In this document: one piece after another, positions 2,062-62,855 of the stretch | How positions within the stretch are numbered: the first letter of the stretch is position 1 | Layout: each line of letters opens with the position of its first letter | From: Eubacteriales bacterium | Lineage (GTDB): Bacteria; Bacillota; Clostridia; Oscillospirales; CAG-272 | Length of the DNA stretch: 62,990 nt | NCBI GenBank assembly: GCA_050309735.1 | Contig: JBNRMS010000030.1 | Location: 1-62,990 of the forward strand | Direction of reading: 5' to 3' | Translations under genes and position numbers: made by a program | Notes under the pieces: generated by a model | The model's database searches: none | What the model was told of the DNA's origin: nothing | What the model saw: only the letters and a program-made list of their open reading frames with translations

Positions 2062-2107
2062 CTCTCTTTTCCCTTCTTTTTTATAAATATTGAAAATTTT
2101 TTATTTC

Positions 2108-2247
2108 TATGGTATAATATACACATTAGCAGGTTTCGAAGAAACCTGCGATGTCGCAACGGCGAGGTAGCGCCCGGGAGATATTCACTTGCGACTATGG
2201 TATAATATATGCACTGGCAGCTTTTGCAAAAAGCTGCGATGTCGCAA
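2108..2247 (+). repeat. Dispersed repeat family 1, tandem copies A1 (full) and A2 (5' half)
   Basis: Both units start TATGGTATAAT (TGnTATAAT at 2110-2118 and 2198-2206). Each is followed by a 9-bp stem/3-nt loop hairpin (2129-2149 GCAGGTTTCgaaGAAACCTGC; 2217-2237 GCAGCTTTTgcaAAAAGCTGC) and then GATGTCGCAA. Unit A1 continues to GGGAGATATTCACTTGCGACTATG. Related copies lie at 34497(+), 35526(-), 40159(+) and 48104(-). Confidence 0.85.
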
Positions 2248-2306
2248 AAATAAAACAGCGTATGGAAAATTCGACTAACATAAATATAAGCAAGGGGGTG
2301 CTCTAA

Positions 2307-25040: not shown

Positions 25041-26858
25041 TCAGCTCTTTATCTGCCTTTTGTTGAAGGAGAGATAGGAAAGAGCAATGAGCAGCGCAGT
25101 AAATACAATCAGAACTACAGAGCCGACAACTACGCTAAGTTTCGCGCCCGCGCCATAGAGATATGACGTGCCCGACATGATAAGACCGCTGAAGCTGCCG
25201 CCGTAATAGCTCAGCGGATTGATTATCAGCGAATTCAAATCGTTATAAGGCAGCGGGGTATATTCGAGGAAACCCACATACTGTCGCACCTCACCTGACT
25301 GCAGGAGCATAACCGAAATGGCAGAAGCTATGCCAAAGAGGGTGTTGAGTATTAGCGAGAGGGCTATTGAGAGAGCCGACTTTCGCGTGAGCACCGAGAA
25401 CAGGAATGCGAATGCAAAGACAAGGAAGGCGGGCAGTGCCGCGAGGACAAGGACTCTGAGCGCCGTGAGCATTGCCGGCAGGCGAACCACACTGTCACCG
25501 ACAAGGACAAGGTCGGGCGTGAGAATATCGGTTACCCCGTTTATTATAATGTTAATGACAAACAGAAGGAAAACCGAGACAAGCATCAGGGCAAACGACC
25601 AAAAGGCGGCGGCCGTCAGCTTTGAGGTCAGAATCTTCCAGCGCTTTTTGGGTCGGATTAAGAGCAGGCGGATAGAGCCCGAGGAAAACTCGCCCGACAC
25701 AATAGTTCCGGCTAAAATTATCATAAATATGCGGATATAGCCAATCGACGAGATAATCGCGCTCTGCCAGGAAAGTTTGGCCGATTTTTCAAGCGAATAT
25801 GGGGTTGGAATTTCATTATCAAGGCTGTAATTGAGAATTGCTAGGGCATCGTCCGAGGCCTTGATTTTCGCCTCGGTTTCGGCCACATAGTCGTCATAAG
25901 AACCCCAGTTCTCGGCATGTAGGCTCTTTGGCCTTATAACAAGACCCATCCGCTCTTCAAGAACCGAGTTTGCCAGAATTGTCACGGTTCTGTATCGCCA
26001 GTCTTTTTGGTCGACATTGGCCGCGACAAGATAATCAGCAAGCCGAACCTTTTCGGCCAGGCACTCAACCCGCAGCTCTGCTGTGGCGTAGCCGTATTTC
26101 AGCTCGTCGCTATCCGGTTCAATTTTGAGCTGAAGCTCATAATCTTTTAGCATCGCTTCTGCCTCGGCATATTCAACCCGGAGGCCGGCCGCATAGGCCG
26201 CAAGCCGTCCGCTGAAGTCTGTGTTGATTATCTCGGCTTCAAGCGAGCTTACATGCCCCTTTATATAGTCGTAATAGTCCTTGTGCGTGATATCGACCGG
26301 GGTGAGAGAGCCGTCTTCTTCGATGCGCATATACTTGCCGGTCTTCAAATCAAAAAGATAGTCCTCCTCGCTCCCCATATACATAAAGTAATACTTGAAG
26401 CTTGACTGATCGATAACATCAATGTCAAACCCTTCCTCGGCAAGCAGTCTGACGGCCTCGGCGCGGAGTTTTGCGTCGCGGTATCTGTTGTAATACGTAT
26501 CATATTTCCATGAGCCGATAAGCTCTCTGTCTATAAAGAATTTTATAACGCTTGCCTCTGTCTCGTAATAATAGGCCTCGGCAAGGTCTATCCCTGATGC
26601 GCCCTCATATTCGCGATAACTCTGGGCAACTTCAAGATAGTGCTCATACTGCTGCTCAGCTCCGTAATAATATCCGGAGCCAAACGATAGGAGCCGGTTC
26701 GCGACATAGGTAAGAATCGGTATCATCACAATTATAACGGCGAGGATGATGACAATAACCCGATTTGAGGTCTGGCTCCAAATTTTTATGCTTTCGTTTT
26801 TGAAAAGTCGGTTTTTCATTATTTTTGTGCTTTTGTTTTTGAAAAGTCGGTTTTTCAT
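25041..26858 (-). CDS. ABC-2 type permease with large extracytoplasmic domain
   Basis: 605 aa. N-terminal TM, a soluble segment of about 330 aa, and a C-terminal bundle of about 5 TM helices. Its ATG overlaps the ATPase stop (ATGA). Confidence 0.75.
   Translation of the reverse strand: MKNRLFKNKSTKIMKNRLFKNESIKIWSQTSNRVIVIILAVIIVMIPILTYVANRLLSFGSGYYYGAEQQYEHYLEVAQSYREYEGASGIDLAEAYYYETEASVIKFFIDRELIGSWKYDTYYNRYRDAKLRAEAVRLLAEEGFDIDVIDQSSFKYYFMYMGSEEDYLFDLKTGKYMRIEEDGSLTPVDITHKDYYDYIKGHVSSLEAEIINTDFSGRLAAYAAGLRVEYAEAEAMLKDYELQLKIEPDSDELKYGYATAELRVECLAEKVRLADYLVAANVDQKDWRYRTVTILANSVLEERMGLVIRPKSLHAENWGSYDDYVAETEAKIKASDDALAILNYSLDNEIPTPYSLEKSAKLSWQSAIISSIGYIRIFMIILAGTIVSGEFSSGSIRLLLIRPKKRWKILTSKLTAAAFWSFALMLVSVFLLFVINIIINGVTDILTPDLVLVGDSVVRLPAMLTALRVLVLAALPAFLVFAFAFLFSVLTRKSALSIALSLILNTLFGIASAISVMLLQSGEVRQYVGFLEYTPLPYNDLNSLIINPLSYYGGSFSGLIMSGTSYLYGAGAKLSVVVGSVVLIVFTALLIALSYLSFNKRQIKS
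26781..26858. repeat. 39-bp tandem duplication covering the start codon of the permease gene
   Basis: 26781-26819 and 26820-26858 differ at only 3-4 positions. Both units contain ATGAAAAACCGACTTTTCAAAAAC (minus strand), giving MKNRLFKNKSTKI-MKNRLFKNESIKI. Confidence 0.9.
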
Positions 26859-27799
26859 TTAGCCTCACCTCCCGGAGCCGAATAGCCCCGCGTCATCTCA
26901 AGGAAAGCGTCCTCAAGTGTTCGCTTGACAGGTATCACCGAAATTACCCCCGCGTCTCCCATGGCAAGCAGCTTTATCACGCCGGGCAGGTCGGCCTCGG
27001 GCAGGGTCAGCCTGATTTTGCCGTCGGCCTTGTGGTGTTCTATTCCCGCCTCGGCAAGTATTCGCATAGCAATCTCGCCGTCAACAAGGGTAAGGTCGCA
27101 CGCAATCTCGCCTCGGGCGCTCGCGCGGTGAAGCTCCTCCATCGTTCTGATTCCGACAAGCGAGCCTCGGTCGATAACGGCAATTTTGTCACACATAAGC
27201 TCTATCTCGGCGAGCAGATGGCTTGAAACAAAGACAGCCGTCCCCTCATTCCTTGAGAGTGATTTGAGTATATCGCGCAGCTCCTTAATTCCCGCCGGGT
27301 CGAGTCCGTTTGTCGGCTCATCAAGGACAAGCAGCCGAGGGCGATTTAGAAGAGCCTGAGCCACACCAAGACGCTGCTTCATACCGAGCGAATATTTTGA
27401 TATCTTGTCGTTTATGCGCTCCTTAAGGCCGACCAAATCAACCAGCTCATCAACCCGACTTTCGGGAATATTGTCATACATACGGCGGTACTGGTCAAGA
27501 TTCTGCCGCCCGGTCAGATAGGAATACATCTCGGGGTTTTCGATAATTCCCCCGACATGTGCAATAGCAGCCTCAAAGTCGGTTACAATATTGTGGCCGC
27601 AGACATAAATCTCGCCATAATCAATCCTGAGAAGGCCGAGTATCAGCTTAATTGTTGTGGTTTTTCCCGAGCCGTTAGGGCCGAGAAAGCCGAATATCTC
27701 GCCGGGATATATGTCAAAATCAATATTGTGAAGTATCGGTCTTGCGCCGAGCGATTTTGACAGGTTTCTCACGCTCAGCACCGGCGCGGTGTTTTCCAT
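26855..27799 (-). CDS. ABC transporter ATP-binding protein
   Basis: Walker A GPNGSGKTT, signature YSLGMKQR, Walker B LLVLDEP. I prefer the ATG at 27799 (MENTAPVLSVRNL), with AGGAGA 8 nt upstream. Confidence 0.9.
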   Translation of the reverse strand: MENTAPVLSVRNLSKSLGARPILHNIDFDIYPGEIFGFLGPNGSGKTTTIKLILGLLRIDYGEIYVCGHNIVTDFEAAIAHVGGIIENPEMYSYLTGRQNLDQYRRMYDNIPESRVDELVDLVGLKERINDKISKYSLGMKQRLGVAQALLNRPRLLVLDEPTNGLDPAGIKELRDILKSLSRNEGTAVFVSSHLLAEIELMCDKIAVIDRGSLVGIRTMEELHRASARGEIACDLTLVDGEIAMRILAEAGIEHHKADGKIRLTLPEADLPGVIKLLAMGDAGVISVIPVKRTLEDAFLEMTRGYSAPGGEAK

Positions 27800-34329: not shown

Positions 34330-34496
34330 ACTTTTACGCTCCTTTGAAGGTTTTCAATCTTTATTTTTGCCCTTCTTAGCCTGTTTATTCAGAAGCTGTA
34401 AAAATATATTAGAAATATTTCCTTAAAATATGACATTTGATGGGGGCGGTGGATATTTAATTTCATAGAAAATTATATTGTAAAATGTCGTTTTAA

Positions 34497-34602
34497 TGAT
34501 ATAATATGTACATTGGCAGGTTTCAGAGAAACCTGCAATGTCGCAAAGGTGAGGTAGGGCATGGGAGAGATTCACTTACGAATATGAATATACGCATTGG
34601 CA
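34497..34602 (+). repeat. Dispersed repeat family 1, copy B
   Basis: TGATATAAT (34497-34505), ATGTACATTGGCAG, hairpin 34516-34536 GCAGGTTTCagaGAAACCTGC, AATGTCGCAA, GGTGAGGTAGGGCATGGGAGAGATTCACTTACGAATATG, then a partial restart ATATACGCATTGGCA. Confidence 0.85.
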
Positions 34603-34636: not shown

Positions 34637-35506
34637 ATGAGATTATTGGCAAAAAAATCAACACTCTTTTTCTTTATCGTTCTTAAGGGCGCTCTTGTCG
34701 GCATGGCGGGGATAATGCCCGGCATAAGCGGCGGCGTTTTTATGCTCGTTTTCGGCTTTTACGAACCCTTCATGGAGGTGCTGTCAAAACCAAAAACAGG
34801 GCTTGCGCGGCACTGGCGGCTTATCCTCCCGTTTGTCACCGGCGTGGCGGTCGGATTCTGGATTACGGCGGTTTTCCTCTCTCAAATCTTCTCGGGATTT
34901 GAGAAAGAGTCTACCTGTCTTTTTGCCGGGATAGTGGCGGGGATGTTCCCCTCAATGTTCCGAGATGCCAACAAAAAAGGCCGGCTTCCCGGCTCGCGCA
35001 CCGCGCTTTTCACGGGCACATTTTTTATGCTTGCCCTGCTTCTCTTTCTCCGGTTCGGAACCGGAATAGAGGTCGAGCCGAATGCCGGATGGTATATTTT
35101 CAGCGGCATTCTGTGGGGGCTTTCGATGATAATCCCCGGGCTGAATTCAACCTCGCTACTGCTTTTTATGGGGCTTTACATATCGATGACCCGGGGGCTT
35201 AGCAGACTTGAGATGCCGGTCTTAATACCCTGGCTTATCGGAATCGCGCTGGCTCTTCTTGTTTTCTCGCGCGGGGTCGGCTTTGTTTTTGGAAGGTACT
35301 ACAGTATCGCTATGCACGCAATAATCGGCACGGTGCTTGCCTCCACGATAATGATAATCCCGCTTGAATACGAGGACGCGGGGCAGCTTATATTGTGCGC
35401 CTTCCTTGCGCTCCTCGGCGTACTCTTGGCCGTCGGACTTGACTGGATTGACAGAATAATGCGCGTGAAATATTTAGCCGCAGGCGGCCAGAAAGAAAAT
35501 TTGTAG
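34637..35506 (+). CDS. DUF368-family polytopic membrane protein (family recently linked to undecaprenyl-phosphate recycling)
   Basis: 289 aa, about 8 TM. GIMPGISGGVFMLVFGFYE and IIPGLNSTSLLLFMGLY resemble the duplicated DUF368 signature. Confidence 0.75.
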   Translation: MRLLAKKSTLFFFIVLKGALVGMAGIMPGISGGVFMLVFGFYEPFMEVLSKPKTGLARHWRLILPFVTGVAVGFWITAVFLSQIFSGFEKESTCLFAGIVAGMFPSMFRDANKKGRLPGSRTALFTGTFFMLALLLFLRFGTGIEVEPNAGWYIFSGILWGLSMIIPGLNSTSLLLFMGLYISMTRGLSRLEMPVLIPWLIGIALALLVFSRGVGFVFGRYYSIAMHAIIGTVLASTIMIIPLEYEDAGQLILCAFLALLGVLLAVGLDWIDRIMRVKYLAAGGQKENL

Positions 35507-35525
35507 TTTATTTATTTATATAATA

Positions 35526-35630
35526 ACATAGTCGCAAGTGAATTTCTCCCATGTGTTTCTTCTCTTTTGCGACATCGCAGCTTTTTGCAAAAGCTGCCAA
35601 TGTGTATATTTAATAATAATGTGTATATTT
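35526..35630 (-). repeat. Dispersed repeat family 1, copy C (inverted relative to copy B)
   Basis: The reverse complement reads AAATATACACATTGGCAGCTTTTGCAAAAAGCTGCGATGTCGCAAAAGAGAAGAAACACATGGGAGAAATTCACTTGCGACTATG. The hairpin is at 35577-35597. The 5' AAATATACACATT segment is duplicated. Confidence 0.85.
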
Positions 35631-35641
35631 AATAATTTAAT

Positions 35642-40091: not shown

Positions 40092-40158
40092 AGGAGACAG
40101 ACAAATCAGGTAGGATTCGGCGTTTAAACCGGAAGCAATCAAATAACTGTCGGCCTCG

Positions 40159-40185
40159 CATGGGAGAAATTCACTTGCGACTATG
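40159..40185 (+). repeat. Dispersed repeat family 1, copy D (3' half only)
   Basis: CATGGGAGAAATTCACTTGCGACTATG is identical to the 3' segment of copy C. It lies between convergent genes. Confidence 0.75.
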
Positions 40186-43699: not shown

Positions 43700-43715
43700 A
43701 CAAAAGTCTATTTGA

Positions 43716-43732
43716 GCCGCCCTTCGGGCGGC
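43716..43732 (+). promoter_or_regulatory. GC hairpin plus SD leader module (family 2, copy R5)
   Basis: GCCGCC-cttcg-GGCGGC is immediately followed by ATGGGGG, then TTAAT and ATG of the aminopeptidase gene. Confidence 0.6.
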
Positions 43733-43744
43733 ATGGGGGTTAAT

Positions 43745-44821
43745 ATGACACATCTTGAAAAACTCAAAAGCCGGCTCGGCGGAGCCAATCCCGACGCTGT
43801 GATAGTTTCGTCCTATGTGAACCGGCGCTATCTCTCGGGCTTCTCCTTCTCCGACGGATATCTCTTGCTCACACGCGAAAAATGCTATCTTATAACAGAT
43901 TTTCGATATACCGAGGCCGCCACGCTTAGCGCAGACCGCGGGCTTATCGTCACAGCGCCGGCCGGCGGGATTCCGGCTTTCATTGCCGAGGCGCTTGCCG
44001 AGAACGGCTGCCGGTCAGTCGCTTTTGAGGAGGCGACCCTCTCTTATTCGTCCTTTGAGGAACTGCGCGATGCCCTCCCCGGGGTTGAGCTTATCCCGGG
44101 CGGCTCGGCGATTATCGACGGCCTGCGCGAGATAAAGGATGAGAGCGAGCAAAAAAAGATCGCCGCGGCGCAGAATATCACAGACGACGCCTTCGAGCAT
44201 ATTCTAAAATTTATCAAGCCCGGAATGACCGAGCGCGAGCTCGCGCTTGAGCTTGAGTTTTTCATGAGGAGAGCCGGCGCCGAGGGAGCGGCCTTTGAAA
44301 TTATCGCCGTGTCGGGGAGCGCATCATCAATGCCGCACGGCACCCCGCGAAACACACCGCTTGAGCCCGGCTTCCTTACACTTGATTTCGGCGCCCGGGT
44401 GGAGGGATATTGCTCCGACATGACCCGCACGGTAGTCCTCGGCCGCGCCGACAACGAGATGAAACGACTTTACAACACCACTCTCACCGCCCAGCTTGCC
44501 GCGCTAAAGGCTATACATGAGGGTGCCGATTGCCGCTCGGTAGACCGTGTCGCGCGCGACATAATATATAGCGCCGGATACGAGGGCTGTTTCGGCCACG
44601 GGCTCGGCCACGGGGTCGGGATGTATATTCATGAGGCGCCCCGCCTCTCAGGCAGAGCACCGGAGCGAGCGCGTCTTGCGGCAGGTCATATTGTAACAGT
44701 TGAGCCGGGGATTTATATCGCCGGGAAATACGGCTGCCGGATTGAGGATATGGTGGCAGTAACGGCGGAGGGCATTCATAATTTCACTCGCAGTCCAAAG
44801 GATTTGATTGAATTGTTTTAG
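43745..44821 (+). CDS. Xaa-Pro aminopeptidase (M24B, aminopeptidase P family)
   Basis: Contains HGLGHGVGMYIHE and VEPGIY. I prefer the start at 43745 (MTHLEKLKS), after GGGGG. In-frame upstream ATGs exist at 43733 and 43712. Confidence 0.85.
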   Translation: MTHLEKLKSRLGGANPDAVIVSSYVNRRYLSGFSFSDGYLLLTREKCYLITDFRYTEAATLSADRGLIVTAPAGGIPAFIAEALAENGCRSVAFEEATLSYSSFEELRDALPGVELIPGGSAIIDGLREIKDESEQKKIAAAQNITDDAFEHILKFIKPGMTERELALELEFFMRRAGAEGAAFEIIAVSGSASSMPHGTPRNTPLEPGFLTLDFGARVEGYCSDMTRTVVLGRADNEMKRLYNTTLTAQLAALKAIHEGADCRSVDRVARDIIYSAGYEGCFGHGLGHGVGMYIHEAPRLSGRAPERARLAAGHIVTVEPGIYIAGKYGCRIEDMVAVTAEGIHNFTRSPKDLIELF

Positions 44822-48034: not shown

Positions 48035-48103
48035 AATTACCTCCGGGCATAATTTTATATTTATCTGTTGCAATAAAGCTTGTTTTATATTAAAATATAT
48101 AAT

Positions 48104-48160
48104 GTGCCTCTTGCGGCAGCAGCTTTCTGCGAGCGCTGCCAATGTACACATTATACCATA
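48104..48160 (-). repeat. Dispersed repeat family 1, copy E (5' half, divergent)
   Basis: The reverse complement is TATGGTATAATGTGTACATTGGCAGCGCTCGCAGAAAGCTGCTGCCGCAAGAGGCAC. The TGGTATAAT box at 48150-48158 faces proA. Confidence 0.7.
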
Positions 48161-48233
48161 CTTTTTATAATATTGGAAGGGGCGCGCCGAAATTTTCTGA
48201 AGCCGCTATTTTTAAAATTTAAGGAGACAAAGA

Positions 48234-49070: not shown

Positions 49071-49081
49071 GCAATAAAATA

Positions 49082-49246
49082 TAAGGTAGAGGCGCGACGC
49101 AGCATAAGCGCGCGGCACACATGGGGTCAGAGCAAGACCGCCGTGCCGCGAGAAGGGCTGCTCGCCGAAGGGGATCATGCTAAAGGTCGCCCTGGGCAAA
49201 CGGAGAATATCCGTTTGACTGTCGCCATACGGCGGAGAGCTATCGA
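49082..49246 (+). promoter_or_regulatory. Lysine riboswitch (L-box) aptamer
   Basis: GGTAGAGGCGCGAC..., GCTCGCCGAAGGGG, TGACTGTCGCC and GGAGAGCTATC parallel the conserved cores of the B. subtilis lysC leader (AGAGGTGC, GTCGCCGAAG, GGCTGTCA). It lies directly upstream of lysine-pathway genes. Confidence 0.85.
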
Positions 49247-49303
49247 AATAATGCTATTGCATTTGTAAATTTTATATATTTATATGCCGTAATATTATTT
49301 CTG

Positions 49304-49342: not shown

Positions 49343-49368
49343 GAAAATAATATTATATGGAGGATATA

Positions 49369-50259
49369 ATGAAACTCAAAAATCCAATCTTCACCGGCGC
49401 CGCCACCGCCCTTGTCACCCCACTCACACCCCGGGGGGTTGATTACGAAAACTTCGGCAAGCTTATTAACTGGCAGATAGCTTCGGGTATCGACGCGCTT
49501 GTCATATGCGGAACCACCGGCGAGTCCTCAACCCTCTCGGATGAGGAGCACCGCGAGGTGCTCGCTTTTGCCGCGAGAGTCGCGGGCGGGCGAGTTCCCC
49601 TCATTGCCGGAACCGGCTCTAATGACACCGCCTATGCGATTGATCTGACAAAGCATGCCTGCGAACTGGGATATGATGCCATGCTGATTGTCTCGCCTTA
49701 TTACAACAAGGCCACTCAGAAAGGACTTGTCGCCTCCTTTACCGCCATTGCCGATGCAAGCACAAAGCCCTGCATTGTCTACAATGTCCCCTCGCGCACC
49801 GGCGTCAACATCGAGCCGGCCACATACCTTGCGCTCGCCGAGCACCCGCGGATAAACGCCATAAAAGAAGCTAACTCCAATATCTCAAAAATTGTCGAGA
49901 CAATGGCTCTTGTCCGGGATAAGCTCGATCTTTATTCGGGAAACGATGACCAAATCACCCCCCTTCTCTCGGTCGGCGCCATGGGGGTAATCTCGGTTGT
50001 CTCAAACCTTATCCCACATGAGACAAGTGAGATCTGCCGCAGATTTTTTGCCGGCAACGTTGCCGGGAGCGCCGAGATGCAATTTAAATATCTCCCGCTC
50101 ATCAACGACCTTTTCTGCGAGGTTAATCCGATTCCGGTCAAGGCAGCGATGGCGGCGATGGGATATTGCGAGAACTATCTGCGCCTGCCCCTGACTCCGA
50201 TGGAGGAGCCGCACATGGAAGCAATGCTCTCAAAAATGCGCGCGCTCGGACTTATATGA
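49369..50259 (+). CDS. dapA: 4-hydroxy-tetrahydrodipicolinate synthase
   Basis: Contains TALVTPL, CGTTGES, YYNK and YNVPSRTG. I prefer the ATG at 49369, with GGAGGA 7 nt upstream. Confidence 0.95.
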   Translation: MKLKNPIFTGAATALVTPLTPRGVDYENFGKLINWQIASGIDALVICGTTGESSTLSDEEHREVLAFAARVAGGRVPLIAGTGSNDTAYAIDLTKHACELGYDAMLIVSPYYNKATQKGLVASFTAIADASTKPCIVYNVPSRTGVNIEPATYLALAEHPRINAIKEANSNISKIVETMALVRDKLDLYSGNDDQITPLLSVGAMGVISVVSNLIPHETSEICRRFFAGNVAGSAEMQFKYLPLINDLFCEVNPIPVKAAMAAMGYCENYLRLPLTPMEEPHMEAMLSKMRALGLI

Positions 50260-51060: not shown

Positions 51061-51177
51061 GCAAAAGATAAGACAACGGCCACCATATCGAAAATCCAAA
51101 AACGCCGCACCCGATAAGGCGCGACATTAGCGAAAAGCTTAATAGATTTATTCTCCCAAACAAAGGGCGGGCTTTGT

Positions 51178-51209
51178 GATTGTTCGGTCTCGGCCGAGCC
51201 CGAACAATC
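51178..51209. other. 32-nt near-perfect palindrome between dapB and ddh
   Basis: GATTGTTCGGTCTCGG|CCGAGCCCGAACAATC (one mismatch). There is no adjacent U-tract. Confidence 0.8.
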
Positions 51210-51241
51210 CTTGCAGCACACAGAAAGGAAATATCATAAAT

Positions 51242-52216
51242 ATGAATATAGCAATTGTAGGTTACGGTAATCTCGGACGCGGCGTTGAAGCTGCGGCAAA
51301 GAAAAATCCCGATATGAATCTTGTCGCTGTTTTTACCCGCAGGCCTCCCGAATCTCTTAAATTATCAACACCCGGTATACCGGTTCGCCCGCTCGCCGAC
51401 GCAAAAAAATACAAAAACGACATTGATGTTATGATAATCTGCGGAGGCAGCGCGTCCGACCTGCCCATAATCACCCCCGCGCTCGCAGAAGACTTTAATG
51501 TTGTCGACAGCTTTGACACGCACGCAAAAATCAACGAGCACTTCAGAAAAGTCGACGCGGCGGCTCTCTCGGGCAACCGCACGGCTATAATTTCAATCGG
51601 CTGGGATCCCGGACTTTTTTCGGTGAACAGACTATATATGTCCTCGGTGCTGCCCGACGGGCGCGACTATACCTTCTGGGGGCGCGGGGTCAGTCAGGGT
51701 CACTCAGACGCTATCCGCCGCATCGAGGGAGTGCTCGACGCGCGCCAATACACCGTTCCCTCGCCCGAGGCGATGAGGGCGGTGAGAGAAGGCAAAAACC
51801 CCGAACTCACAACCCGCCAGAAGCACACGCGCGAGTGTTTTGTCGCCGCGGCGCCCGGTGCAGACCTTGCAAAAATCGAGCAAGAAATCAAGACAATGCC
51901 TGATTATTTTGCCGATTATGACACGACGGTGACATTTATCAGCATGGACGAGATGAAGAAAAGCCACGCCTCCCTGCCCCACGGCGGCTCGGTTATCCGC
52001 TCGGGTACAACCTCTGACCGAGCAACGCATACTATGGAATTCAGCCTCTCGCTTGACTCAAATCCCGAATTCACCGCGAGCGTCCTCTGCGCCTTTGCGC
52101 GGGCGGCCTTTACGCTCTCGTCAAAGGGTGATTACGGCTGCAAAACAATTTTTGATATCCCCCCGGCTCTTCTCTCTTGCCGCCCGGCCGAAGAATTGCG
52201 CGCAACCATGCTTTAG
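51242..52216 (+). CDS. ddh: meso-Diaminopimelate D-dehydrogenase
   Basis: MNIAIVGYGNLGRGVE, GWDPGLFS, SQGHSDAIRRIEGV, MPDYF and PHGG align closely with Corynebacterium Ddh as I recall it. I prefer the ATG at 51242. Confidence 0.93.
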   Translation: MNIAIVGYGNLGRGVEAAAKKNPDMNLVAVFTRRPPESLKLSTPGIPVRPLADAKKYKNDIDVMIICGGSASDLPIITPALAEDFNVVDSFDTHAKINEHFRKVDAAALSGNRTAIISIGWDPGLFSVNRLYMSSVLPDGRDYTFWGRGVSQGHSDAIRRIEGVLDARQYTVPSPEAMRAVREGKNPELTTRQKHTRECFVAAAPGADLAKIEQEIKTMPDYFADYDTTVTFISMDEMKKSHASLPHGGSVIRSGTTSDRATHTMEFSLSLDSNPEFTASVLCAFARAAFTLSSKGDYGCKTIFDIPPALLSCRPAEELRATML

Positions 52217-52466: not shown

Positions 52467-52865
52467 TCAACAGCCATAAATATCGGTTATTTTCTCAATG
52501 GCGCCGGGGATGCCCGAGCAGATTGAGGACATGGCGTCGCAGTATCTGTCGTAGAGTTTCTCGGATAGCTCCTCGTTCTCGTCAAGGACGAGCATTGCCG
52601 CGATATAGAGCGAGGCAGGTTTTGCAAATCGCCTTGTAAGCGGAAAAACCGAGGCGAGTTCAATCATAACAGCGCTGTATGCAGGCTGCTTGTCAAGCGA
52701 GCCTGCGCTCCGGCAGAGGGTGTCGAGCGCCCCCGCCTCGGAGCAAAAAGCCGCAAGAAGATATGGGGCGCGTTCGGCATAGTCGCCGGTGCCCTCGTTC
52801 TCTCTCTCTCCGATAAGGGCAAGCGCGGCTTCGTATATCTCGGTGCAGATTATTTCATTTTCCAT
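52467..52865 (-). CDS. Phage-cassette small protein (possible head-completion/adaptor protein)
   Basis: 132-aa ORF immediately after the capsid-like gene, which is the position of head-completion genes in P22-like orders. I recognise no motif. Confidence 0.5.
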   Translation of the reverse strand: MENEIICTEIYEAALALIGERENEGTGDYAERAPYLLAAFCSEAGALDTLCRSAGSLDKQPAYSAVMIELASVFPLTRRFAKPASLYIAAMLVLDENEELSEKLYDRYCDAMSSICSGIPGAIEKITDIYGC

Positions 52866-52868
52866 GTT

Positions 52869-52919
52869 TTCTCCACGCCGCCCAGAGGCGGCTAATTAAA
52901 TTTTTGTAATTTTCGGCGG
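52869..52919 (-). repeat. Family 2 intergenic element, copy R1
   Basis: The minus strand reads CCGCCGAAAATTACAAAAATTTAATTAGCCGCCtctgGGCGGCGTGGAGAAAAC, then ATG of the 132-aa gene. Confidence 0.8.
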
Positions 52920-52958
52920 GGAGCCGGGGGCTCTGCCCCCGGACATCCTTTTTTTGAT

Positions 52959-53795
52959 TTACGACTCGGCAATGCCGAGATTGAGCAGCACCAACTCGTC
53001 AGAATAGACGATCTTTGCACCATATAAGTGCAGACCTTTAACGGCATCTGCAAAGCGCTTCTCGGGGCGATATGCGCTGATTTCGGAGAGCTGCTCGGCA
53101 AAGGCAATCGCGCGCTTTGTGCGTGCAAGGCACTTATAGTAGGTCACATCTGAAACCTCAGCCGAGGCGATATTATTCGACACGAATATCCTGCAGCCGC
53201 CGATGCTGCCGATGCATCCCTTCTCAAGCGCCTCGCGGTTGTCGGTTGAGAGATCCATTTTCGCCTTTAGAATCAGAGACGCTATTTGAGGTGAAACTTC
53301 GATTACAATGTCGTCGGCGTCCGACACGTTTTTGGTGAAAAGCGTGGTGCGCGCGTCGATTATATGACCGATAACATTGCTTGTGGTGGTCGCATCCTCT
53401 GTTATGGTGGTGCCGGCGTCCGAGTAGAGCGAGTAGACATAGGTGTCGGCGGTGTTGGCAAGAGCGTTTGCCGCTATCCTCATCGCCTCGTTCATCAGCT
53501 TGGGAGTGCATTGGGCGCGGTCGATGTCGTCAATCTGGAAATTGAAGGCCTTTGCCTGATCAATAAGCAGACTGCGTGTGCTGTCCGAGAGGGCCTGAGG
53601 GGCGGTCATGTCGGTGTCCTTGGTGTAGTCAAAAACATTGACGGCACCTACGCCGACAATATTAACCACCGAACCCTTTTCCTTGATGTCGCCCTCGAAG
53701 TCGCGGTTGCAGTGCTTGACCGCGATATACTTCTTGTCGAGCTGTGTGTAGAGGTTTTCGCTCCAGACTGTGGGAATAAAATTTGAAATAGCCAT
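52959..53795 (-). CDS. Phage major capsid protein-like (HK97-fold family suspected)
   Basis: 278 aa. The N-terminus MAISNFIPTVWSENLYTQLDKKYIAVKHCNRDFEGDIKEKGSVVNIV matches the pattern I associate with short Firmicute-phage coat proteins annotated as P22-coat/gp5-like. It follows a scaffold-like gene. Confidence 0.65.
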   Translation of the reverse strand: MAISNFIPTVWSENLYTQLDKKYIAVKHCNRDFEGDIKEKGSVVNIVGVGAVNVFDYTKDTDMTAPQALSDSTRSLLIDQAKAFNFQIDDIDRAQCTPKLMNEAMRIAANALANTADTYVYSLYSDAGTTITEDATTTSNVIGHIIDARTTLFTKNVSDADDIVIEVSPQIASLILKAKMDLSTDNREALEKGCIGSIGGCRIFVSNNIASAEVSDVTYYKCLARTKRAIAFAEQLSEISAYRPEKRFADAVKGLHLYGAKIVYSDELVLLNLGIAES

Positions 53796-53816
53796 GATTT
53801 TTCTTCCTTTCTTTAT

Positions 53817-54368
53817 TTAGCTCCATGATTTCATGGAGTCTATTATCTTTGTGTAATTTTCTCTTACCTCCGAGGCGCTCATTGAGCGAACCTCGTTCGG
53901 CGTGAAAAACCCCGTCTTCCCCCGGCCGTCAAGACATCCCGAGGAATTCTCGCTGTTCTTTACGTTTATTTCGGCGGCTCTCTTGCGGCGCGCCCTGTCA
54001 TAGGCATAGGCCGCCGCCAGGGGCACGCCGCTCCTCACCGACTCCCAGACCTCACCCGGCAGCGAACCGAGCTCCTCTCCCGGAAAAACCTCGGTGAATT
54101 CGGCAATCTCGCGCGACATTCGCTCGAAATATCGATTCTGCTCATCAAGCCGAGAGCGCAGGCCTTCAAGCTCGGCGCGAAGAATCGCGAGCTCATCGGC
54201 GGGATCTGCGGGGGTTTGGGATTGGGCAGGATTCCCATTATCTGTTCCGGCCTCGTCCCCAGCCTCGGGTTCGTCCTCTGTTCCACCCTCGTCCTCGACC
54301 TCGGGCGATTTATCGTCGGTTGGTAAATCCTCAAGGAGCAACTCATCTTCTCTTATTTCGATTGGCAT
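53817..54368 (-). CDS. Phage scaffolding protein-like
   Basis: 183 aa. Very acidic N-terminus (EDEGGTEDEPEAGDEAGTD) and a coiled segment LAILRAELEGLRSRLDEQNRYFERM. It is located between the portal and capsid genes. Confidence 0.6.
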   Translation of the reverse strand: MPIEIREDELLLEDLPTDDKSPEVEDEGGTEDEPEAGDEAGTDNGNPAQSQTPADPADELAILRAELEGLRSRLDEQNRYFERMSREIAEFTEVFPGEELGSLPGEVWESVRSGVPLAAAYAYDRARRKRAAEINVKNSENSSGCLDGRGKTGFFTPNEVRSMSASEVRENYTKIIDSMKSWS

Positions 54369-54372
54369 TTCC

Positions 54373-55941
54373 TCACCCTCCTCGCTCAGACATTTTCTTT
54401 TGCCTTATCTCTTCAAGCAGTGCGTCGCGATCGGTAAGCACTCCGGCAGGCAGCCTTTCTATGTACTGCTCGGGGGTTATATGCCCGCCGTCAAGCAGGC
54501 GGTTGAGCATACTAAGCGTGCCCGCTGCGCCGTAACGCGAGATTTCGCCGACATCGACCCGCGCCCTTATCAGAGCACCTCTCAGACTGCTAAGGTCAAC
54601 GCGCTCGGCGCGCTCCTCGCCCCCCTCGACGAAGGGTACGAGGCGTTGGTCGGGATAATAAGCGCACATCATATCGGCCCATATATTCGCAAGATCCTCT
54701 ATGCACTGAAAGTAACTCCGGCGAACCTGCTCGAGCGGGATTCTTGCCGCCTCCTGAAGTGCGAGTATCGCGCTGGTATTTGTTGCCTCGCCGTCTCCGA
54801 GAGCGCTCTCTGTCGCCCCCATCATCTCTTTGGTCATTCGCGCGGCAAGCTCTATGAGTTCGAGATATCCCTCCTGCATCTGCCCTACGCCAACGACCGA
54901 CACGGCGTCTGAAACGTTTGTTCCGCCGAGCGCAGCTATCGCCTCCCCCACCCCGTTTGTCCACTCGGGAATGCGCGACTTGTCGTAGATTACCTTCGAG
55001 AAGGCAGTGTCGGTCATATGCTTCATAACCATCGCAAAGGCGCGATTGATAAACTTTTGATTCGGAATCATCCCGCTTATCGGCGAGGTTCCGTGAAAAC
55101 TGTTCTTGGTCGGAAACCAGTTGAAATAGGCTACCGGATATAAGGTCAGGTCGGTTCTCTGCCGGCGAATCACCGCGCCCTGCACAGACTTTTCGAAACA
55201 GACCTTCCCGTCCTCGCGCCAGAATTTTATTAAGCATGTTGCCTTCCTTTCGCTATAGTGCTCGTCGATACTCCCGAGTTCATATCTGGCCATATCTCCC
55301 GATTGATTATCCCCGCCGTCATCGGGCTGGATTTTCTTTATCATCTCGGCAGAAGCGCCATATTTTCTTGCCTCCTCGCAGAGCGCCTCAACCCTCTCAC
55401 GCCCCGAAATTATGATATAATCCTGAGACTGGATGTCCGCGCGATTAACGTCGGCGACAAAAAGGTTCACATTGTCGATAACCTCGGTTGCGATGTCGCC
55501 GGTAAAGTCGCGTCCGGCCGAGGCCGACGGATCCCACCAGCAAAAGAGCACTCCGTCTCCGCTTATCGCGGCGTCGGTCAGGAGCGAATAGAGCTTTCGG
55601 TCAAGTTTCGCACGTTCCCAGCGGTAGGCGGCATTTCTTGTCATCGCACCGACCGCCCGCCCTATCGCCGCTGCAGCCGCCGGGTCTCTGACAAAGGGCA
55701 GATTTTCGTCGTTGTACGAGAGCGAGATGTCACCCGAGAAAACAGTGCAGACAAGATAGTCGATAATTCGGCGGATTATGTTGAAGACGGGTTTGGGGAG
55801 ATCGGTGTTTTCGGCTCCGTACCACTGATTTCCGCGGTAGAATCGCTCGTTCTGTCGCACCGTCTCAAAAAGCCCGATTCTGCGCTTGTATTCAAGCCCC
55901 TCCTCATACTGCCGCCATGCTTTAGTTTTGAATTTTTTCAT
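54373..55941 (-). CDS. Phage portal protein-like
   Basis: 522 aa. The N-terminus KAWRQYEEGLEYKRRIGLFETVRQNERFYRGNQW is a pattern I associate with portal proteins. Its size and its position before the scaffold gene fit. Confidence 0.65.
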   Translation of the reverse strand: MKKFKTKAWRQYEEGLEYKRRIGLFETVRQNERFYRGNQWYGAENTDLPKPVFNIIRRIIDYLVCTVFSGDISLSYNDENLPFVRDPAAAAAIGRAVGAMTRNAAYRWERAKLDRKLYSLLTDAAISGDGVLFCWWDPSASAGRDFTGDIATEVIDNVNLFVADVNRADIQSQDYIIISGRERVEALCEEARKYGASAEMIKKIQPDDGGDNQSGDMARYELGSIDEHYSERKATCLIKFWREDGKVCFEKSVQGAVIRRQRTDLTLYPVAYFNWFPTKNSFHGTSPISGMIPNQKFINRAFAMVMKHMTDTAFSKVIYDKSRIPEWTNGVGEAIAALGGTNVSDAVSVVGVGQMQEGYLELIELAARMTKEMMGATESALGDGEATNTSAILALQEAARIPLEQVRRSYFQCIEDLANIWADMMCAYYPDQRLVPFVEGGEERAERVDLSSLRGALIRARVDVGEISRYGAAGTLSMLNRLLDGGHITPEQYIERLPAGVLTDRDALLEEIRQKKMSERGG

Positions 55942-55944
55942 TTA

Positions 55945-55996
55945 TCCCCCATGCCGCCCGAAGGGCGGCTAATTAGATTTTGGAATTTTCGGCGGC
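55945..55996 (-). repeat. Family 2 intergenic element, copy R2
   Basis: The minus strand reads GCCGCCGAAAATTCCAAAATCTAATTAGCCGCCcttcgGGCGGCATGGGGGATAA, then ATG of the portal gene. Confidence 0.85.
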
Positions 55997-56088
55997 TTTG
56001 CCGCAAAAGTGGGGCAGGGTCCCACTTTTAGAAAATTCGTGTGTGAAACAGCAAGACTCAAAATTTATGAATGTAATGCTTTCACACG

Positions 56089-56140
56089 ATCCCCCATGCC
56101 GCCATCGGCGGCTTATATAATTTTGAATTTTTCGGCAGCC
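56089..56140 (-). repeat. Family 2 intergenic element, copy R3 (no gene directly downstream)
   Basis: The minus strand reads CTGCCGAAAAATTCAAAATTATATAAGCCGCCgatGGCGGCATGGGGGATC. It begins 6 nt after the stop of the 580-aa gene. Confidence 0.8.
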
Positions 56141-56145
56141 GCTCC

Positions 56146-57885
56146 TTATTTGCTTGCCGTCAGCGCAAGTCCGAATATCCGCTGGCGGCCCTCCCCGCGC
56201 GCCGATATGCGATAGCCGACATAATCAAGCCTGCCGGTCGACACCCGCGCCTCATGGCAGCCGATTTGATCTTGGGTCGAAAAGTGACTTTTGGTCAGCT
56301 CGCCAAAGCTTATCTCGGCACGATTGCCCGACGGGTCGCGAAGGCTCACCGATATTCCGCTCCCCGTTGCCGTCATGCGTATTCGTTTAACTCTTTTCCG
56401 GCTGCCCGGGAGGCTCATATCGCTATATCCGCTCGTATAATCAGCGACAATTTCGCAGCCATCGTCAAGATACTCATTCTCGCCGAAAAGGTATATGCCC
56501 GAGGCCGCCGAGAAACCGGCCTTGTCGCCGTAGGTAAAATAAATCTCGCCCGGTATTTGGGTGAAGCAATACCACTTGTTTATCCGCCAGTTGTAGACAA
56601 ACACCCTCCCCCCGGGGTCGGTCGGATTGCCAATCCAGATTTCGTTTTTCTCGCGGAAATTGTGTATTACCGAGTTTGAGCGGAAATCAAAGTCGATGAG
56701 GTCGCACAGCGGCGCCGAGATATCAACCGCGCTGCTCTCGTCTCTCTGGTCGGTGTTGTCGGTCCAGCGGTAGATTCCGCCCCGACTGACCGTCACCGGA
56801 TCATTATCACAGAGCACCACCCCGCCAAGGCAGCCCACTCCCGAGTTTATCGGGCGGACCGGCGTGTCCTGATAGGAATTCTCCGAGAGGTCTGTCATTC
56901 TTGCGTCGTCTGCGGTAAATAGAAGTAGCCTGTCATAGTGCCGGCAGACCGAGGTAACCTCAGCGCCCCCGGCAGCGACAAGGAAATCATAACCGACCGG
57001 AAAATAGAGCGCCCCCGAGTCGGGGATGACCGCCCGCGAGGCTTCAACATCAGGACCGCTGACATACTTTGACCTGAACACCCTTGATTTGTCGAGCCCG
57101 CCAAAGCAAAATACGCTTGTGTCATATTTCCCACCGTAAACCGCCGCGCCGACAGAGGACGCGAGCGTCGACCGCAGTGTATATGAGGTTCCGATATCAA
57201 GACAGACCTCGATCACGCTGCCCATTGAAGCCGTCGAGCCCAGATTCAGCGTTGTGCCAATGAGGCTGTATCCGCTCGTTTTTGGAACTCCGTTGATAAT
57301 GAGGCTCTCGACAGCTTCAGCCGCAATGCCGGTTGAGATATTTGCGGTCGATGTCGTTGTGAGCTTGTAGGTTATCCTGATGTAGCGCGACAATTGGTTT
57401 AAGGGCTCATTAATCTCTCCCCCGCTGTGAAGCCAATCGCGCCCGTAGAGCGGAACATATCCGCTAACCGGCCAAACTCCGGCACGGGTGCAGCGATAAA
57501 CATCTCCTCCGTCGATAAGGTAAAGCCTGTCTTCAAGGAGGAAAAAGCAGGCTGTGCCCGACTGTGTGCCAACGCCCCCTATCGGGGTGCTTGCCGCTTC
57601 TTCGGGATCGGTCAGATAAACGGTGTCTCCCGCCAACACGACAAGCGATGGTGCGCCCTCAAGCTCTCCCGACCACAGGGCGCGAACCTTTTGCGGGAGG
57701 TCGAGCGCGCGATAGTATCCGCAGCGCTTCTCAAGCGAGCCGTCGGGAAGTATCCTGAAGTTTCTGATATTCTCGGCCACACTCCCGTCACCGATAGGGC
57801 TTGTGCGGTCGATTCCGCCGAAGGAGCTGACCAAAAAAGAGGCCGCCGCACTCCCGGGTTTGTTTTTAATTTTAATATTTGCCAT
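56146..57885 (-). CDS. Large beta-rich phage-cassette protein of unknown role (virion structural protein suspected)
   Basis: The ORF is 56146-57942 (TTG). I prefer the ATG at 57885 (MANIKIKNKPG), with GAAAGG upstream. It is Gly/Ser/Thr/Val/Tyr-rich with short strand-like repeats (FRILPDGSLEKRCGY, LYLIDGGDVY, GGIYRWTD). I recognise no enzymatic motif. Confidence 0.6.
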   Translation of the reverse strand: MANIKIKNKPGSAAASFLVSSFGGIDRTSPIGDGSVAENIRNFRILPDGSLEKRCGYYRALDLPQKVRALWSGELEGAPSLVVLAGDTVYLTDPEEAASTPIGGVGTQSGTACFFLLEDRLYLIDGGDVYRCTRAGVWPVSGYVPLYGRDWLHSGGEINEPLNQLSRYIRITYKLTTTSTANISTGIAAEAVESLIINGVPKTSGYSLIGTTLNLGSTASMGSVIEVCLDIGTSYTLRSTLASSVGAAVYGGKYDTSVFCFGGLDKSRVFRSKYVSGPDVEASRAVIPDSGALYFPVGYDFLVAAGGAEVTSVCRHYDRLLLFTADDARMTDLSENSYQDTPVRPINSGVGCLGGVVLCDNDPVTVSRGGIYRWTDNTDQRDESSAVDISAPLCDLIDFDFRSNSVIHNFREKNEIWIGNPTDPGGRVFVYNWRINKWYCFTQIPGEIYFTYGDKAGFSAASGIYLFGENEYLDDGCEIVADYTSGYSDMSLPGSRKRVKRIRMTATGSGISVSLRDPSGNRAEISFGELTKSHFSTQDQIGCHEARVSTGRLDYVGYRISARGEGRQRIFGLALTASK

Positions 57886-57945
57886 ATAGAACCATGCCTT
57901 TCTGTCACCGCAGGCCTGCGGGACGGTAGGGTACAGGCACAATCA

Positions 57946-59370
57946 TCAGATATCGTAGATGCTTGTCGCGCGTCTGAAGGTAAAATGCTCGCTCGGCTCG
58001 GGCGGCTGCGCCCGGCTCATGACAGCATAGCGCAGCGCCTCGGGCGCGTGGGTCAATGCGTGGGGTTCGCCGGCCGCATCCTCGGGTCGGTCGGGATTGC
58101 AGAGCAGCGATTGCATTGAATTAATGAGGTTCGTACAGGGGTATGAGATTCGCAGCGCCGGGCGGCAGAGCTCGCCGCTCGGCGAGGCCTCGGACGCTGA
58201 TATCGCGCCGGCGAGATACTCGCGCACCTGCCGCCAGCCCGGGATTCTGCGATTGTCTGCCGGGCGCATGGGAGGCATACCTGCCACCGCCTGCATCACC
58301 TCGGCGCCGCTTTTGCCGCTGTCCTGCCTTCTGTTCCAGAGGTCGGGCGAGGCAACGACATATTCGGCATATTCGCCGCCCATCATGCGCACAACCCGCT
58401 CAGCCGCCTCGCTTAAGGTCAGTCCCGGAGCTGAAATCTCTCGGATAACCCACAAGTTCGAGGATGCGTCAACCCCGAGGAGCAGCGCCGCCAACATATC
58501 AAAGCCATAGTCCAGTGCAACAAAGCGCCTTATGTTATTTGGGATAACAGCCGCCGGTGCGGTTTCCCTGCCTCGGGACCCCGCGCCGAATACATGAACA
58601 GACTCGTCAAATTCAGCAAAAAACTGCCCCTCGAAAATGTCCCACCTGCCATGCAGCCAGGCATCTCTAAGGCGGGCGGGCAGCGACTCCAGCTGCCGCT
58701 CATACTCGGGGTCGGCGCGCCGCAGCGCCTCGTTGTCATAAACTCTGGCAGGGATAAAGGCGTAATCCTCGGGATGCTCGCCCGGATGATATCTCCGGTC
58801 GATAAAGAGCCGCTTGACCCACGCGTGTCCGATTCCGCCGGGGTTACAGGTCAGGTAGATACGGCGGGGATAATCCCCGACGCCGCGGAGCGAGGCCTTA
58901 ATTAATGAGTACTGATATTCGCTCAGTTGCGTTGCCTCGTCGATGGCGATAATGTCGTATTCCTGCCCCTGATAGCGCAGGGCGTCCCGGTCGCATGAGC
59001 AGTAGCCAAGGTCTATTGTGCTGTCGCCGGGGACAATCAGCCTTTTTTCGCCCTCGCGATACTCAAGAAGAGCCTGATATTCGCGCAGCATGGGGAGCAC
59101 ATGATTGGTTTTCAGCTCGGGATACGAACGGCGCACAAGCAGGCAGTGTATTCCGGGATAGCGCAGACAAAGCCCAATAAGCTTGCGCCGCAGCGCCCAA
59201 GACTTCCCCCCGCCCCTCGCTCCGCCGTATGCGGTATAGCGCGCTCTTGATTCAAAGAAAAGCCGCTGTTTTTCATTCGGCACCCCCGAAATCAGTAGCA
59301 CCCCGCTCCTTTTCTCCCCCGAACTCTTGTGAGCCATATCAAATCCCTTCCTGTCCTTAATGCCATGCAA
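57946..59370 (-). CDS. Phage terminase large subunit
   Basis: 474 aa. Walker A YGGARGGGKSW, Walker B/coupling YDIIAIDEAT, and a C-terminal nuclease-sized domain. Confidence 0.85.
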   Translation of the reverse strand: MHGIKDRKGFDMAHKSSGEKRSGVLLISGVPNEKQRLFFESRARYTAYGGARGGGKSWALRRKLIGLCLRYPGIHCLLVRRSYPELKTNHVLPMLREYQALLEYREGEKRLIVPGDSTIDLGYCSCDRDALRYQGQEYDIIAIDEATQLSEYQYSLIKASLRGVGDYPRRIYLTCNPGGIGHAWVKRLFIDRRYHPGEHPEDYAFIPARVYDNEALRRADPEYERQLESLPARLRDAWLHGRWDIFEGQFFAEFDESVHVFGAGSRGRETAPAAVIPNNIRRFVALDYGFDMLAALLLGVDASSNLWVIREISAPGLTLSEAAERVVRMMGGEYAEYVVASPDLWNRRQDSGKSGAEVMQAVAGMPPMRPADNRRIPGWRQVREYLAGAISASEASPSGELCRPALRISYPCTNLINSMQSLLCNPDRPEDAAGEPHALTHAPEALRYAVMSRAQPPEPSEHFTFRRATSIYDI

Positions 59371-59390
59371 TTCCCGGCTCTTAGCGTTTT

Positions 59391-62702: not shown

Positions 62703-62714
62703 AATAACCCCCAT

Positions 62715-62729
62715 GCCGCCAATGGCGGC
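62715..62729 (-). promoter_or_regulatory. GC hairpin plus SD leader module (family 2 core, copy R4)
   Basis: The minus strand reads GCCGCC-att-GGCGGC, then ATGGGGG, then TTATT and ATG of the ribokinase gene. A TATAAT box lies about 15 nt upstream of the hairpin. Confidence 0.6.
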
Positions 62730-62855
62730 TCGACATCGATTCTTATTATACACAATTATATCTTAAAACCCACGGCAAATCAAGAATTGCGATGGATTTT
62801 TTGAAAAATGGGTAAAAAGTAGTCACAAAAAGCAAAAATTATTTTAAAAAAACCC

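Follow-up and report, generated by a model that had tools for sequence, protein, structure and literature searches.

A dispersed and tandemly arranged hairpin repeat from an uncultured Clostridia lineage, with an extended -10 box in some of its copies

By bringing in promoters or signals of mRNA structure, small dispersed repeats can change the wiring of many genes simultaneously. The studied cases are the Correia, BOX and ERIC elements and, to our knowledge, almost all examples of such repeats come from cultured pathogens. Promoter-carrying repeats that have been described comprise Correia elements, ERIC, REPIN and the 'putative mobile promoters' (PMC3575422; PMC3049150). BOX elements of Streptococcus pneumoniae (boxA-boxB(n)-boxC) raise or lower the expression of downstream genes (PMC3049150), while Correia elements (CREE/NEMIS) of Neisseria act as functional promoters for neighbour genes and, when transcribed, form hairpins that affect mRNA processing (PMC2229807; PMC3575422). 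Putative mobile promoters were defined by Matus-Garcia, Nijveen & van Passel (2012) as sequences with at least 80% identity over at least 50 nt, located at -150 to -50 of non-paralogous genes (PMC3575422). Structure at the 5' end is also a known shield of Gram-positive mRNAs from 5'-end decay by RppH and RNase J. RppH of B. subtilis needs at least two and prefers at least three unpaired 5' nucleotides, the attack by RNase J depends on the 5' end, and 5'-terminal stem-loops block both RppH and 5'-end-dependent RNases (PMC3997798).

The stretch of DNA analysed here (62,990 nt, referred to as the window) comes from a spore-forming Clostridia bacterium, a member of an uncultured anaerobic-digester lineage, and has the make-up of an ordinary piece of chromosome. 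It encodes SpoIIE, proA/proC, dapA, FeoB, ABC transporters and a small phage-like head-gene cluster, and the best matches of its proA are MAGs labelled Clostridia or Clostridiales. Within this window a dispersed repeat family is present with six copies at five loci, all of them intergenic (5/5), compared to about 10% of the window being intergenic. The repeat unit measures 88-92 nt (84-92 nt when copy B is counted). A covariance model (R1), built from the four full units A-D and run unfiltered on both strands of the window, recovered exactly the six copies A-F and no other significant match. The 24-nt 3' motif GGGAGANATTCACTTGCGACTATG had four matches in the window against 0.00 expected from dinucleotide-preserving shuffles, and the 20-nt 5' motif TATAATATAYRCAYTGGCAG five against 0.02. 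The first-pass annotation had claimed six copies or part-copies, and at all six sites homologous sequence was indeed found, with motif counts and covariance model in agreement. The copies, together with the hairpin (P1) of copy A, are as follows:

2108-2199, plus strand: copy A, full 92-nt unit (110.4 bits with the covariance model; RNA fold z-score -3.09)
2123-2154, plus strand: hairpin P1 of copy A (RNAalifold consensus structure, pair counts)
2196-2279, plus strand: copy B, second tandem unit (75.7 bits over 2201-2279 with the covariance model; alignments)
34495-34586, plus strand: copy C, full unit (110.9 bits, covariance model)
34583-34602, plus strand: aborted start of a further unit behind copy C, TATGAATATACGCATTGGCA (sequence, alignment)
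35527-35618, minus strand: copy D, full unit (110.6 bits, covariance model)
40137-40185, plus strand: copy E, partial (28.4 bits, covariance model; exact 3'-motif match)
48078-48160, minus strand: copy F, decayed unit (29.8 bits, covariance model)

Three of the loci (A/B, C and F) are divergent intergenic regions and two (D and E) are convergent. Copies A and B form a head-to-tail pair with an 88-nt period and share a TATG at their junction; A is the first unit of this pair, which lies between a rhamnosidase-like gene (-) and a DtxR-like gene (+). Copy B had been taken for a part-copy at 2197-2247. It is a full unit, 2196-2279, with its TATAAT at 2201-2206 and P1 at 2211-2242 (arms GCAGCTTTT/AAAAGCTGC), whose 3' module has decayed and carries an 8-nt deletion according to the alignments; the predicted 5' leader of the DtxR-like gene, whose ATG is at 2307, consists largely of this copy. 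Copy C is situated in the divergent region upstream of a VCA0040-like (DUF368) gene, with TATAAT at 34500-34505 and P1 at 34510-34541, and the restart behind it diverges before reaching the hairpin. Copy D lies downstream of an EamA gene and of the terminator-like hairpin of that gene, with P1 at 35572-35603 and with its 5' 19 nt (ATTATTAAATATACACATT) duplicated in tandem at 35600-35637. Copy E has neither -10 box nor hairpin and consists of the 3' module only (secure part 40156-40185); it is possibly an internally deleted unit. Copy F is found in the proC/proA region, 109 nt upstream of the proA ATG (48034); its hairpin (48119-48139) has two broken pairs and its 3' part is unrecognisable.

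The gap between ATGTCGCAA and GGGAGA is constant at 16 nt in copies A, C and D, not 10-14 nt as first described. With a GC content of 37-48%, the units are more AT-rich than the window (52%) and its coding sequence (53%). They are non-coding: no ORF is conserved, and among metagenome contigs only about one copy in two has an internal ATG, for which reason a small-peptide reading was rejected. Inverted doublets of the unit were absent from the window.

Other features of the window were recorded alongside the repeat. The phage-like head genes occupy 52467-59891(-) amid housekeeping genes and include a capsid gene (52959-53795), a portal gene (54373-55941), a large terminase gene (57946-59370) and several ORFs with no Pfam match; tail or integrase genes were not found beside them in the window, and the genes may represent what is left of a prophage, a satellite or a cluster akin to a gene transfer agent. 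A second small repeat family is located at 43715-43746(+), 55941-55972(-), 52865-52895(-) and 62701-62732(-). It consists of a GC-rich hairpin, AGCCGCC(C)-loop-(G)GGCGGC, with a Shine-Dalgarno-like GGGGG/GGAGA directly behind it and then a start codon; the four genes concerned are unrelated (M24 peptidase, phage-like portal, a 132-aa ORF and a PfkB kinase). Stem length and loop vary between its copies with pairing kept, and two of them have a longer 62-nt stretch in common (52858-52919 and 55934-55995, 71% identical). Finally, two tandem 39-nt repeats, 95% identical, are situated at 26782-26859(+) at the 5' end of an ABC-2 permease ORF (25041-26858(-)), in the overlap of this ORF with the upstream ABC ATPase gene.

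The source organism is present in landfill, poultry-litter, sludge and digester metagenomes, and contigs of public runs from these sources were aligned on copy A. In run X1 the element was covered by 96-125 contigs, at a summed depth of about 1100 on the hairpin core versus 3-7 on the single-copy flanks, and the same depth pattern was obtained for runs X2, X3 and X6, the element depth being roughly 100-fold or more above that of the flanks. The number of distinct copies is at least several dozen and probably exceeds 100, an estimate that leans upwards since related strains in one sample all contribute to it. The outcome that had been named as telling against a repeat family, few or no further copies genome-wide, was not observed, as the metagenome contigs show dozens to more than 100. 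Along the unit, the summed depth in run X1 was about 200-400 over the TATAAT part, rose to about 1100 over the hairpin with ATGTCGCAA, fell to about 530 in the 16-nt variable segment and reached about 730 in the 3' module. This unevenness implies that many copies lack the box or have diverged there. The 16-nt internal segment was the most variable part of the unit among the metagenome contigs; a CRISPR-like array was rejected because this segment is homologous between copies and not spacer-like. Joints at which the sequence 'goes back 88', i.e. tandem units, were detected in X2, X3 and X6, and about half of the 5' ends in metagenome contigs were preceded by the 3' end of another unit, so tandem arrays are common. 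The array junction reads CTATG/GTATAAT, the slash marking the end of one unit. Independent assemblies break at the element. The repeat accounts for the interruption of this organism's short-read assemblies at intervals of roughly 10 kb, and covariance model R1 can be used to flag breaks caused by it.

In 42 kb of syntenic MAG DNA (L031 and L032, with proA 76% and 74% identical, respectively) the repeat was absent apart from one relic, compared to six copies in the 63-kb window. This relic, L031 21000-21089(-), is located about 190 nt upstream of an EamA gene and reads TTGACA-17-GATATAATATACACATTGGCtGG. It keeps TTGACA-17-TATAAT plus ATACACATTGGC, and its hairpin is decayed and unpaired, as expected if selection can keep the promoter part after the rest decays. 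Given its near-absence from relatives at 74-76% proA identity, the family is a recent lineage-specific expansion and not a regulatory RNA of ancient origin that goes with certain genes. A MAG with 94% proA identity is the single close relative, and its 2.9-kb contig stops at the very place of copy F. No close orthologue of the VCA0040-like protein is on record, and exact-protein look-ups for four other neighbouring genes returned no match. Logan contigs are unitigs that break inside the repeat, and no site polymorphism is readable from them.

Public collections gave no further trace of the family. The full-copy pattern had only two chance matches in GTDB genomes, and the 3' motif had 24 matches in JGI metagenome contigs, none of them with any other part of the element. 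Pattern scans of viral contigs yielded 0 matches and 1 chance match, and blastn against plasmids and phages found no match. From these searches it follows that the species, or at least the repeat, is absent from those collections. For a 983-aa concatenate of the open six-frame translations, 2735 word candidates in the protein collection left 0 matches at E<=10. The repeat family is previously undescribed.

The conserved structure of the unit is its hairpin. RNAalifold predicts P1 as a 14-bp stem made of a 5-bp lower stem, one bulged base and a 9-bp upper stem; in copy A the bulged base is the A at 2128, and the upper stem GCAGGTTTC/GAAACCTGC (2129-2149) closes a 3-nt loop. The first-pass annotation had described a 9-bp hairpin with a 3-nt loop, which captured the upper stem but was too short for the whole. 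In the four full units 98.2% of P1 cells are paired, a share that falls to 36-46% on shifting the 3' partners by 1-3 columns. Double changes that keep pairing are seen at two pairs (G-C to C-G and C-G to U-A), which bears out the compensatory changes reported earlier, i.e. GCAGGTTTC/GAAACCTGC in A and C versus GCAGCTTTT/AAAAGCTGC in B and D. Among the window copies the two covarying pairs are linked, which defines two subfamilies (A + C and B + D), and they count as few independent events. Across the more than 100 copies in metagenomes, 2137 C>T (11 contigs, X1) is paired with 2141 G>A (11 contigs), and 2145 C>G reaches 49%; the unequal frequencies require a minimum of three hairpin variants. 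In the loop, all three letters are free to vary among the metagenome contigs.

G-U pairs make the sense strand of P1 only 0-1.9 kcal/mol more stable than the antisense strand, so selection on structure could act on RNA or on single-stranded DNA, for instance in transposition. A further pairing, GTCGCAA with TTGCGAC, had also been proposed. It can form in A and D, but it is broken at two of seven positions in B and C and shows no compensatory change among the window copies, and it is not counted as a conserved helix. P1 is the sole convincing hairpin per unit, with no tight second hairpin near the 3' end. A terminator reading of the unit was rejected, as no T-run follows the sense-strand hairpin and the antisense 'terminator-like' sites are 5-bp stems; scans at copies A and C found no terminator after the unit. 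In the comparison to Rfam no model matched the repeat: only a lysine riboswitch and four tRNAs passed the gathering threshold in the window, and at E<=10 the region 2050-2320 produced just three junk matches of 12-19 bits. The lysine riboswitch (49079-49250(+), 77 bits) is located upstream of a dapA-like gene (49357-50259), near a diaminopimelate dehydrogenase gene (51176-52216).

The 5' part of the unit was inspected for promoter signals, and the best site was found at copy A:

2090-2118, plus strand: promoter-like site of copy A, 11/12 consensus matches plus TG

It is composed of TTGAAA (2090-2095, outside the element), a 17-nt spacer, TG at 2110-2111 and TATAAT at 2113-2118 inside the element, the extended -10 sequence being TGgTATAAT. 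The promoter scan of copy C gave TTGTAA-16-TGaTATAAT (10/12 plus TG), and copy F has an intact TGgTATAAT (TATAAT at 48150-48155) with no good -35. Of the six copies, only those upstream of genes (A, B, C and F) have TGnTATAAT intact; between convergent genes the -10 is degenerate in D (TTAAAT) and missing in E. With n=5 loci this link between an intact box and a position upstream of a gene is anecdotal, though suggestive. That intact boxes face a gene, which had been put forward as evidence, is uninformative, since in a divergent region either orientation meets a gene start. Genome-wide, only about 1/5 to 2/5 of the metagenome contig depth on the hairpin core also spans the TATAAT part; the family thus does not carry the box throughout, and most copies may lack a promoter.

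Two observations concern the genes beside these sites. In copy F, a TGTACA palindrome provides a -35-like hexamer on the opposite strand (48143-48171(+)), 17 nt from a TATAAT pointing at proC (consensus match only), and the decayed copy may contribute to both divergent promoters, proC and proA. For the VCA0040-like protein, the public gene call has 263 aa and starts about 26 codons downstream of the first ATG (34637-34715(+)); should this be the true start, copy C would be followed by a leader of about 200 nt instead of 125 nt.

RNA data were available as Logan contigs of metatranscriptomes, which are assembled, of unknown strand and of low depth (about 3.5). One of them covers the A/B array:

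2156-2319, strand unknown: metatranscriptome contig from run X17, exact over 164 nt

It takes in the 3' half of copy A, the whole of copy B, the unique leader and the opening 13 nt of the DtxR-like gene, and is the only X17 contig on the 21 kb of window compared, tRNA-like 31-mers aside; a second X17 contig holds another repeat copy inside an array. In run X23, which belongs to another study, just two contigs other than tRNA matched the 20 kb of window compared, both of them exact pieces of the A/B array, and other repeat copies are present in metatranscriptomes X24-X26. The A/B array is transcribed, DNA carry-over being possible. Its RNA appears relatively abundant, with the reservation that assembly favours multi-copy k-mers over single-copy genes; part of the X17 contig is nonetheless unique sequence. 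Since this contig begins upstream of the box of copy B, the RNA was not initiated at that box, and it plausibly began at the strong promoter of copy A or further upstream. The original idea of a promoter delivered together with a structured leader thus gains from the good extended -10 boxes at A and C and from the RNA reaching into the DtxR-like gene, and loses in that the box is not constant.

On balance we consider it probable that the family is a lineage-specific, high-copy, non-coding intergenic repeat of the BOX/REP/Correia kind, some copies of which have been taken over as promoter and 5' hairpin. The unit is found alone, as a part-copy or repeated head-to-tail every 88 nt, and its 14-bp hairpin core is kept pairable by selection on nucleic-acid structure, be it RNA or single-stranded DNA. 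Under this proposal the consensus extended -10 box (TGnTATAAT) at the 5' edge of the unit would act upstream of genes as a promoter of the sigma-70/SigA (housekeeping) type, with transcription predicted to start 6-9 nt downstream of the box, at the foot of the hairpin. For starts at these positions, folding predicts 0-4 unpaired 5' nucleotides. The mRNA would then begin with a terminal stem-loop preceded by 0-4 unpaired nucleotides, and given the needs of RppH and RNase J a stabilised leader is expected. Such copies would supply a promoter plus a putatively stabilising leader, whereas the copies in convergent regions have lost the box and look inert. Should this reading be confirmed, the family would offer promoter and stable 5' end in one compact natural module, with the hairpin exactly at the point where the transcript would begin.

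A serious though unlikely alternative is that of a selfish or neutral repeat, non-autonomously mobile or amplified by recombination, in which the box is merely an AT-rich end or target sequence, the hairpin is a single-stranded DNA mark for an IS200/IS605 TnpA or RAYT-type transposase, and effects on genes are incidental. The ends of the element speak partly for it. Terminal inverted repeats are lacking: the first 30 nt compared with the reverse complement of the last 30 nt gave a best local score of 4-5, a value equalled or exceeded by 69-100% of shuffles. The bulged hairpin is subterminal, 11-17 nt from the left TATG, and nearly as stable on either strand, and units abut at the constant CTATG/G with an exact 88-nt period. 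Hairpin-guided transposition by way of single strands, as in the IS200/IS605 or RAYT type, would be in keeping with the constant junction and with a bulged hairpin near the end; the arrays could instead be built by unequal recombination. Part-copies and decayed copies, the lack of the box in most of the genome-wide depth and the absence of the family from relatives at 74-76% proA identity are equally in line with a selfish repeat. Against it, none of the 57 window ORFs scanned matched transposase, integrase or Y1 nuclease (HUH-type, tyrosine) families. The right end offers no tight second hairpin; a 7-bp long-range pairing there is weak and does not hold in B and C. TATG at the 5' boundary is frequent but not universal, as some metagenome contigs join the element only at TATAAT or ATGG. 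Moreover, the box is a full extended -10 consensus, intact in the window only upstream of genes, and the array is present in RNA. As to the target-site duplication that flanks each copy of a classical MITE, (T/A)ATG occurs on both sides of A, B and C, where it is indistinguishable from element sequence without empty sites.

A bolder version of the favoured reading, in which the repeat would be an actively mobile promoter and 5'-stabiliser cassette that rewires many genes in the lineage, is in our view doubtful. Insertion next to TATG would be guided by the hairpin, through a Y1-transposase/RAYT or an undescribed mechanism, and the repeat's own target at the unit end would build the head-to-tail arrays.

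It is very improbable that the unit serves as a DNA-level protein-binding site, i.e. that its 21-nt perfect palindrome is bound by a dimeric regulator or a nucleoid-associated protein, operator-like or as a gyrase/IHF-binding REP, making up a regulon or a chromosome-structuring motif. The palindrome, at about +3 to +30 relative to the -10 box, does occupy a typical repressor position, and many intergenic copies exist. However, its half-sites change together and keep pairing (G-C to C-G, C-G to T-A), which is hairpin-like and not recognition-like, and on these compensatory changes the operator reading was rejected; the loop letters vary freely, the neighbour genes are functionally unrelated, and tandem arrays with decayed copies are ill-suited to a set of operators.

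A functional RNA family, either multi-copy trans-acting sRNA genes (an alternative already raised in the first-pass annotation) or a riboswitch/attenuator-type cis leader, would account for the promoter-like box, the conserved hairpin, the conserved GGGAGAAATTCAC segment and the presence in metatranscriptomes, but is likewise very improbable, given that the unit is followed by no terminator, matches no Rfam model, has a single supported helix (the second being broken with no compensation) and varies most in its 16-nt internal segment, that it exists in dozens to more than 100 copies including tandem and truncated, decayed ones, that orthologous genes in relatives lack it, and that the downstream genes have no common function.

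Among the described systems closest to the repeat are the 5'-terminal stem-loop mRNA stabilisers, represented by the ompA/papA leaders of E. coli and the aprE leader of B. subtilis. The repeat resembles them in placing a stable hairpin within 0-4 nt of the predicted 5' end; those are single-gene leaders, whereas here a repeated element is concerned and the stabilising effect is predicted. Elements derived from IS200/IS605 are recognised by subterminal hairpins at both ends, the lack of inverted repeats and insertion 3' of a fixed tetra- or pentanucleotide. Here inverted repeats are lacking and a hairpin lies near the left TATG, with the right end showing only the weak 7-bp pairing. The likeness to REP/REPIN-RAYT and other IS200/IS605-derived repeats consists in a short hairpin core kept by compensatory change, an intergenic location, a high copy number and the lack of terminal inverted repeats, and the constant adjoining TATG would fit hairpin-guided single-strand cleavage. 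REPs are, in contrast, 20-40 nt long and typically arranged as inverted pairs, and go with a cognate RAYT (Y1 transposase) gene that they flank, while the Clostridia units of 88-92 nt are head-to-tail, with one convincing hairpin each and no RAYT or TnpA in the window. Classical bacterial MITEs (Correia, RUP, ERIC type) share with the repeat a length below 200 bp, the non-coding nature, the multi-copy state and an AT content above that of the genome, but require the terminal inverted repeats that it lacks. The earlier suggestion of a MITE/REP-type repeat is thus right as to a true dispersed family, and fails on the terminal inverted repeats and on a unit and array unlike REP pairs.

Copies B and C fall within the definition of putative mobile promoters: B lies at -111 to -28 of the DtxR-like gene and C at -142 to -51 of the unrelated VCA0040-like gene, and each is 83% identical over 53 nt to copy A, with which, and not directly with each other, they were compared. 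That category is a catch-all with no mechanism; the Clostridia repeat goes beyond it in having a defined hairpin and tandem arrays, and in that some of its copies lie elsewhere than in front of genes. Correia elements are likewise repeats of about 100-150 nt with more than 100 copies, promoter donation and transcribed hairpins. They differ in their 24-26-bp terminal inverted repeats, TA target duplications and IHF site (PMC2229807), the hairpin of the Clostridia element being internal, short and not formed by the element ends. To BOX the likeness is architectural only, with no evident sequence relationship and a host of another class. Both are small, non-coding, intergenic and present in roughly 100 copies, with predicted stem-loops when transcribed and with modules that are present, absent or tandem, the array length of BOX varying between strains (PMC3049150). 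In BOX, however, an inner module is repeated, whereas here it is the whole 88-nt unit, which moreover carries a consensus extended -10 box. The repeat therefore represents a new family within the small dispersed repeats of bacteria, and not a new kind of system.
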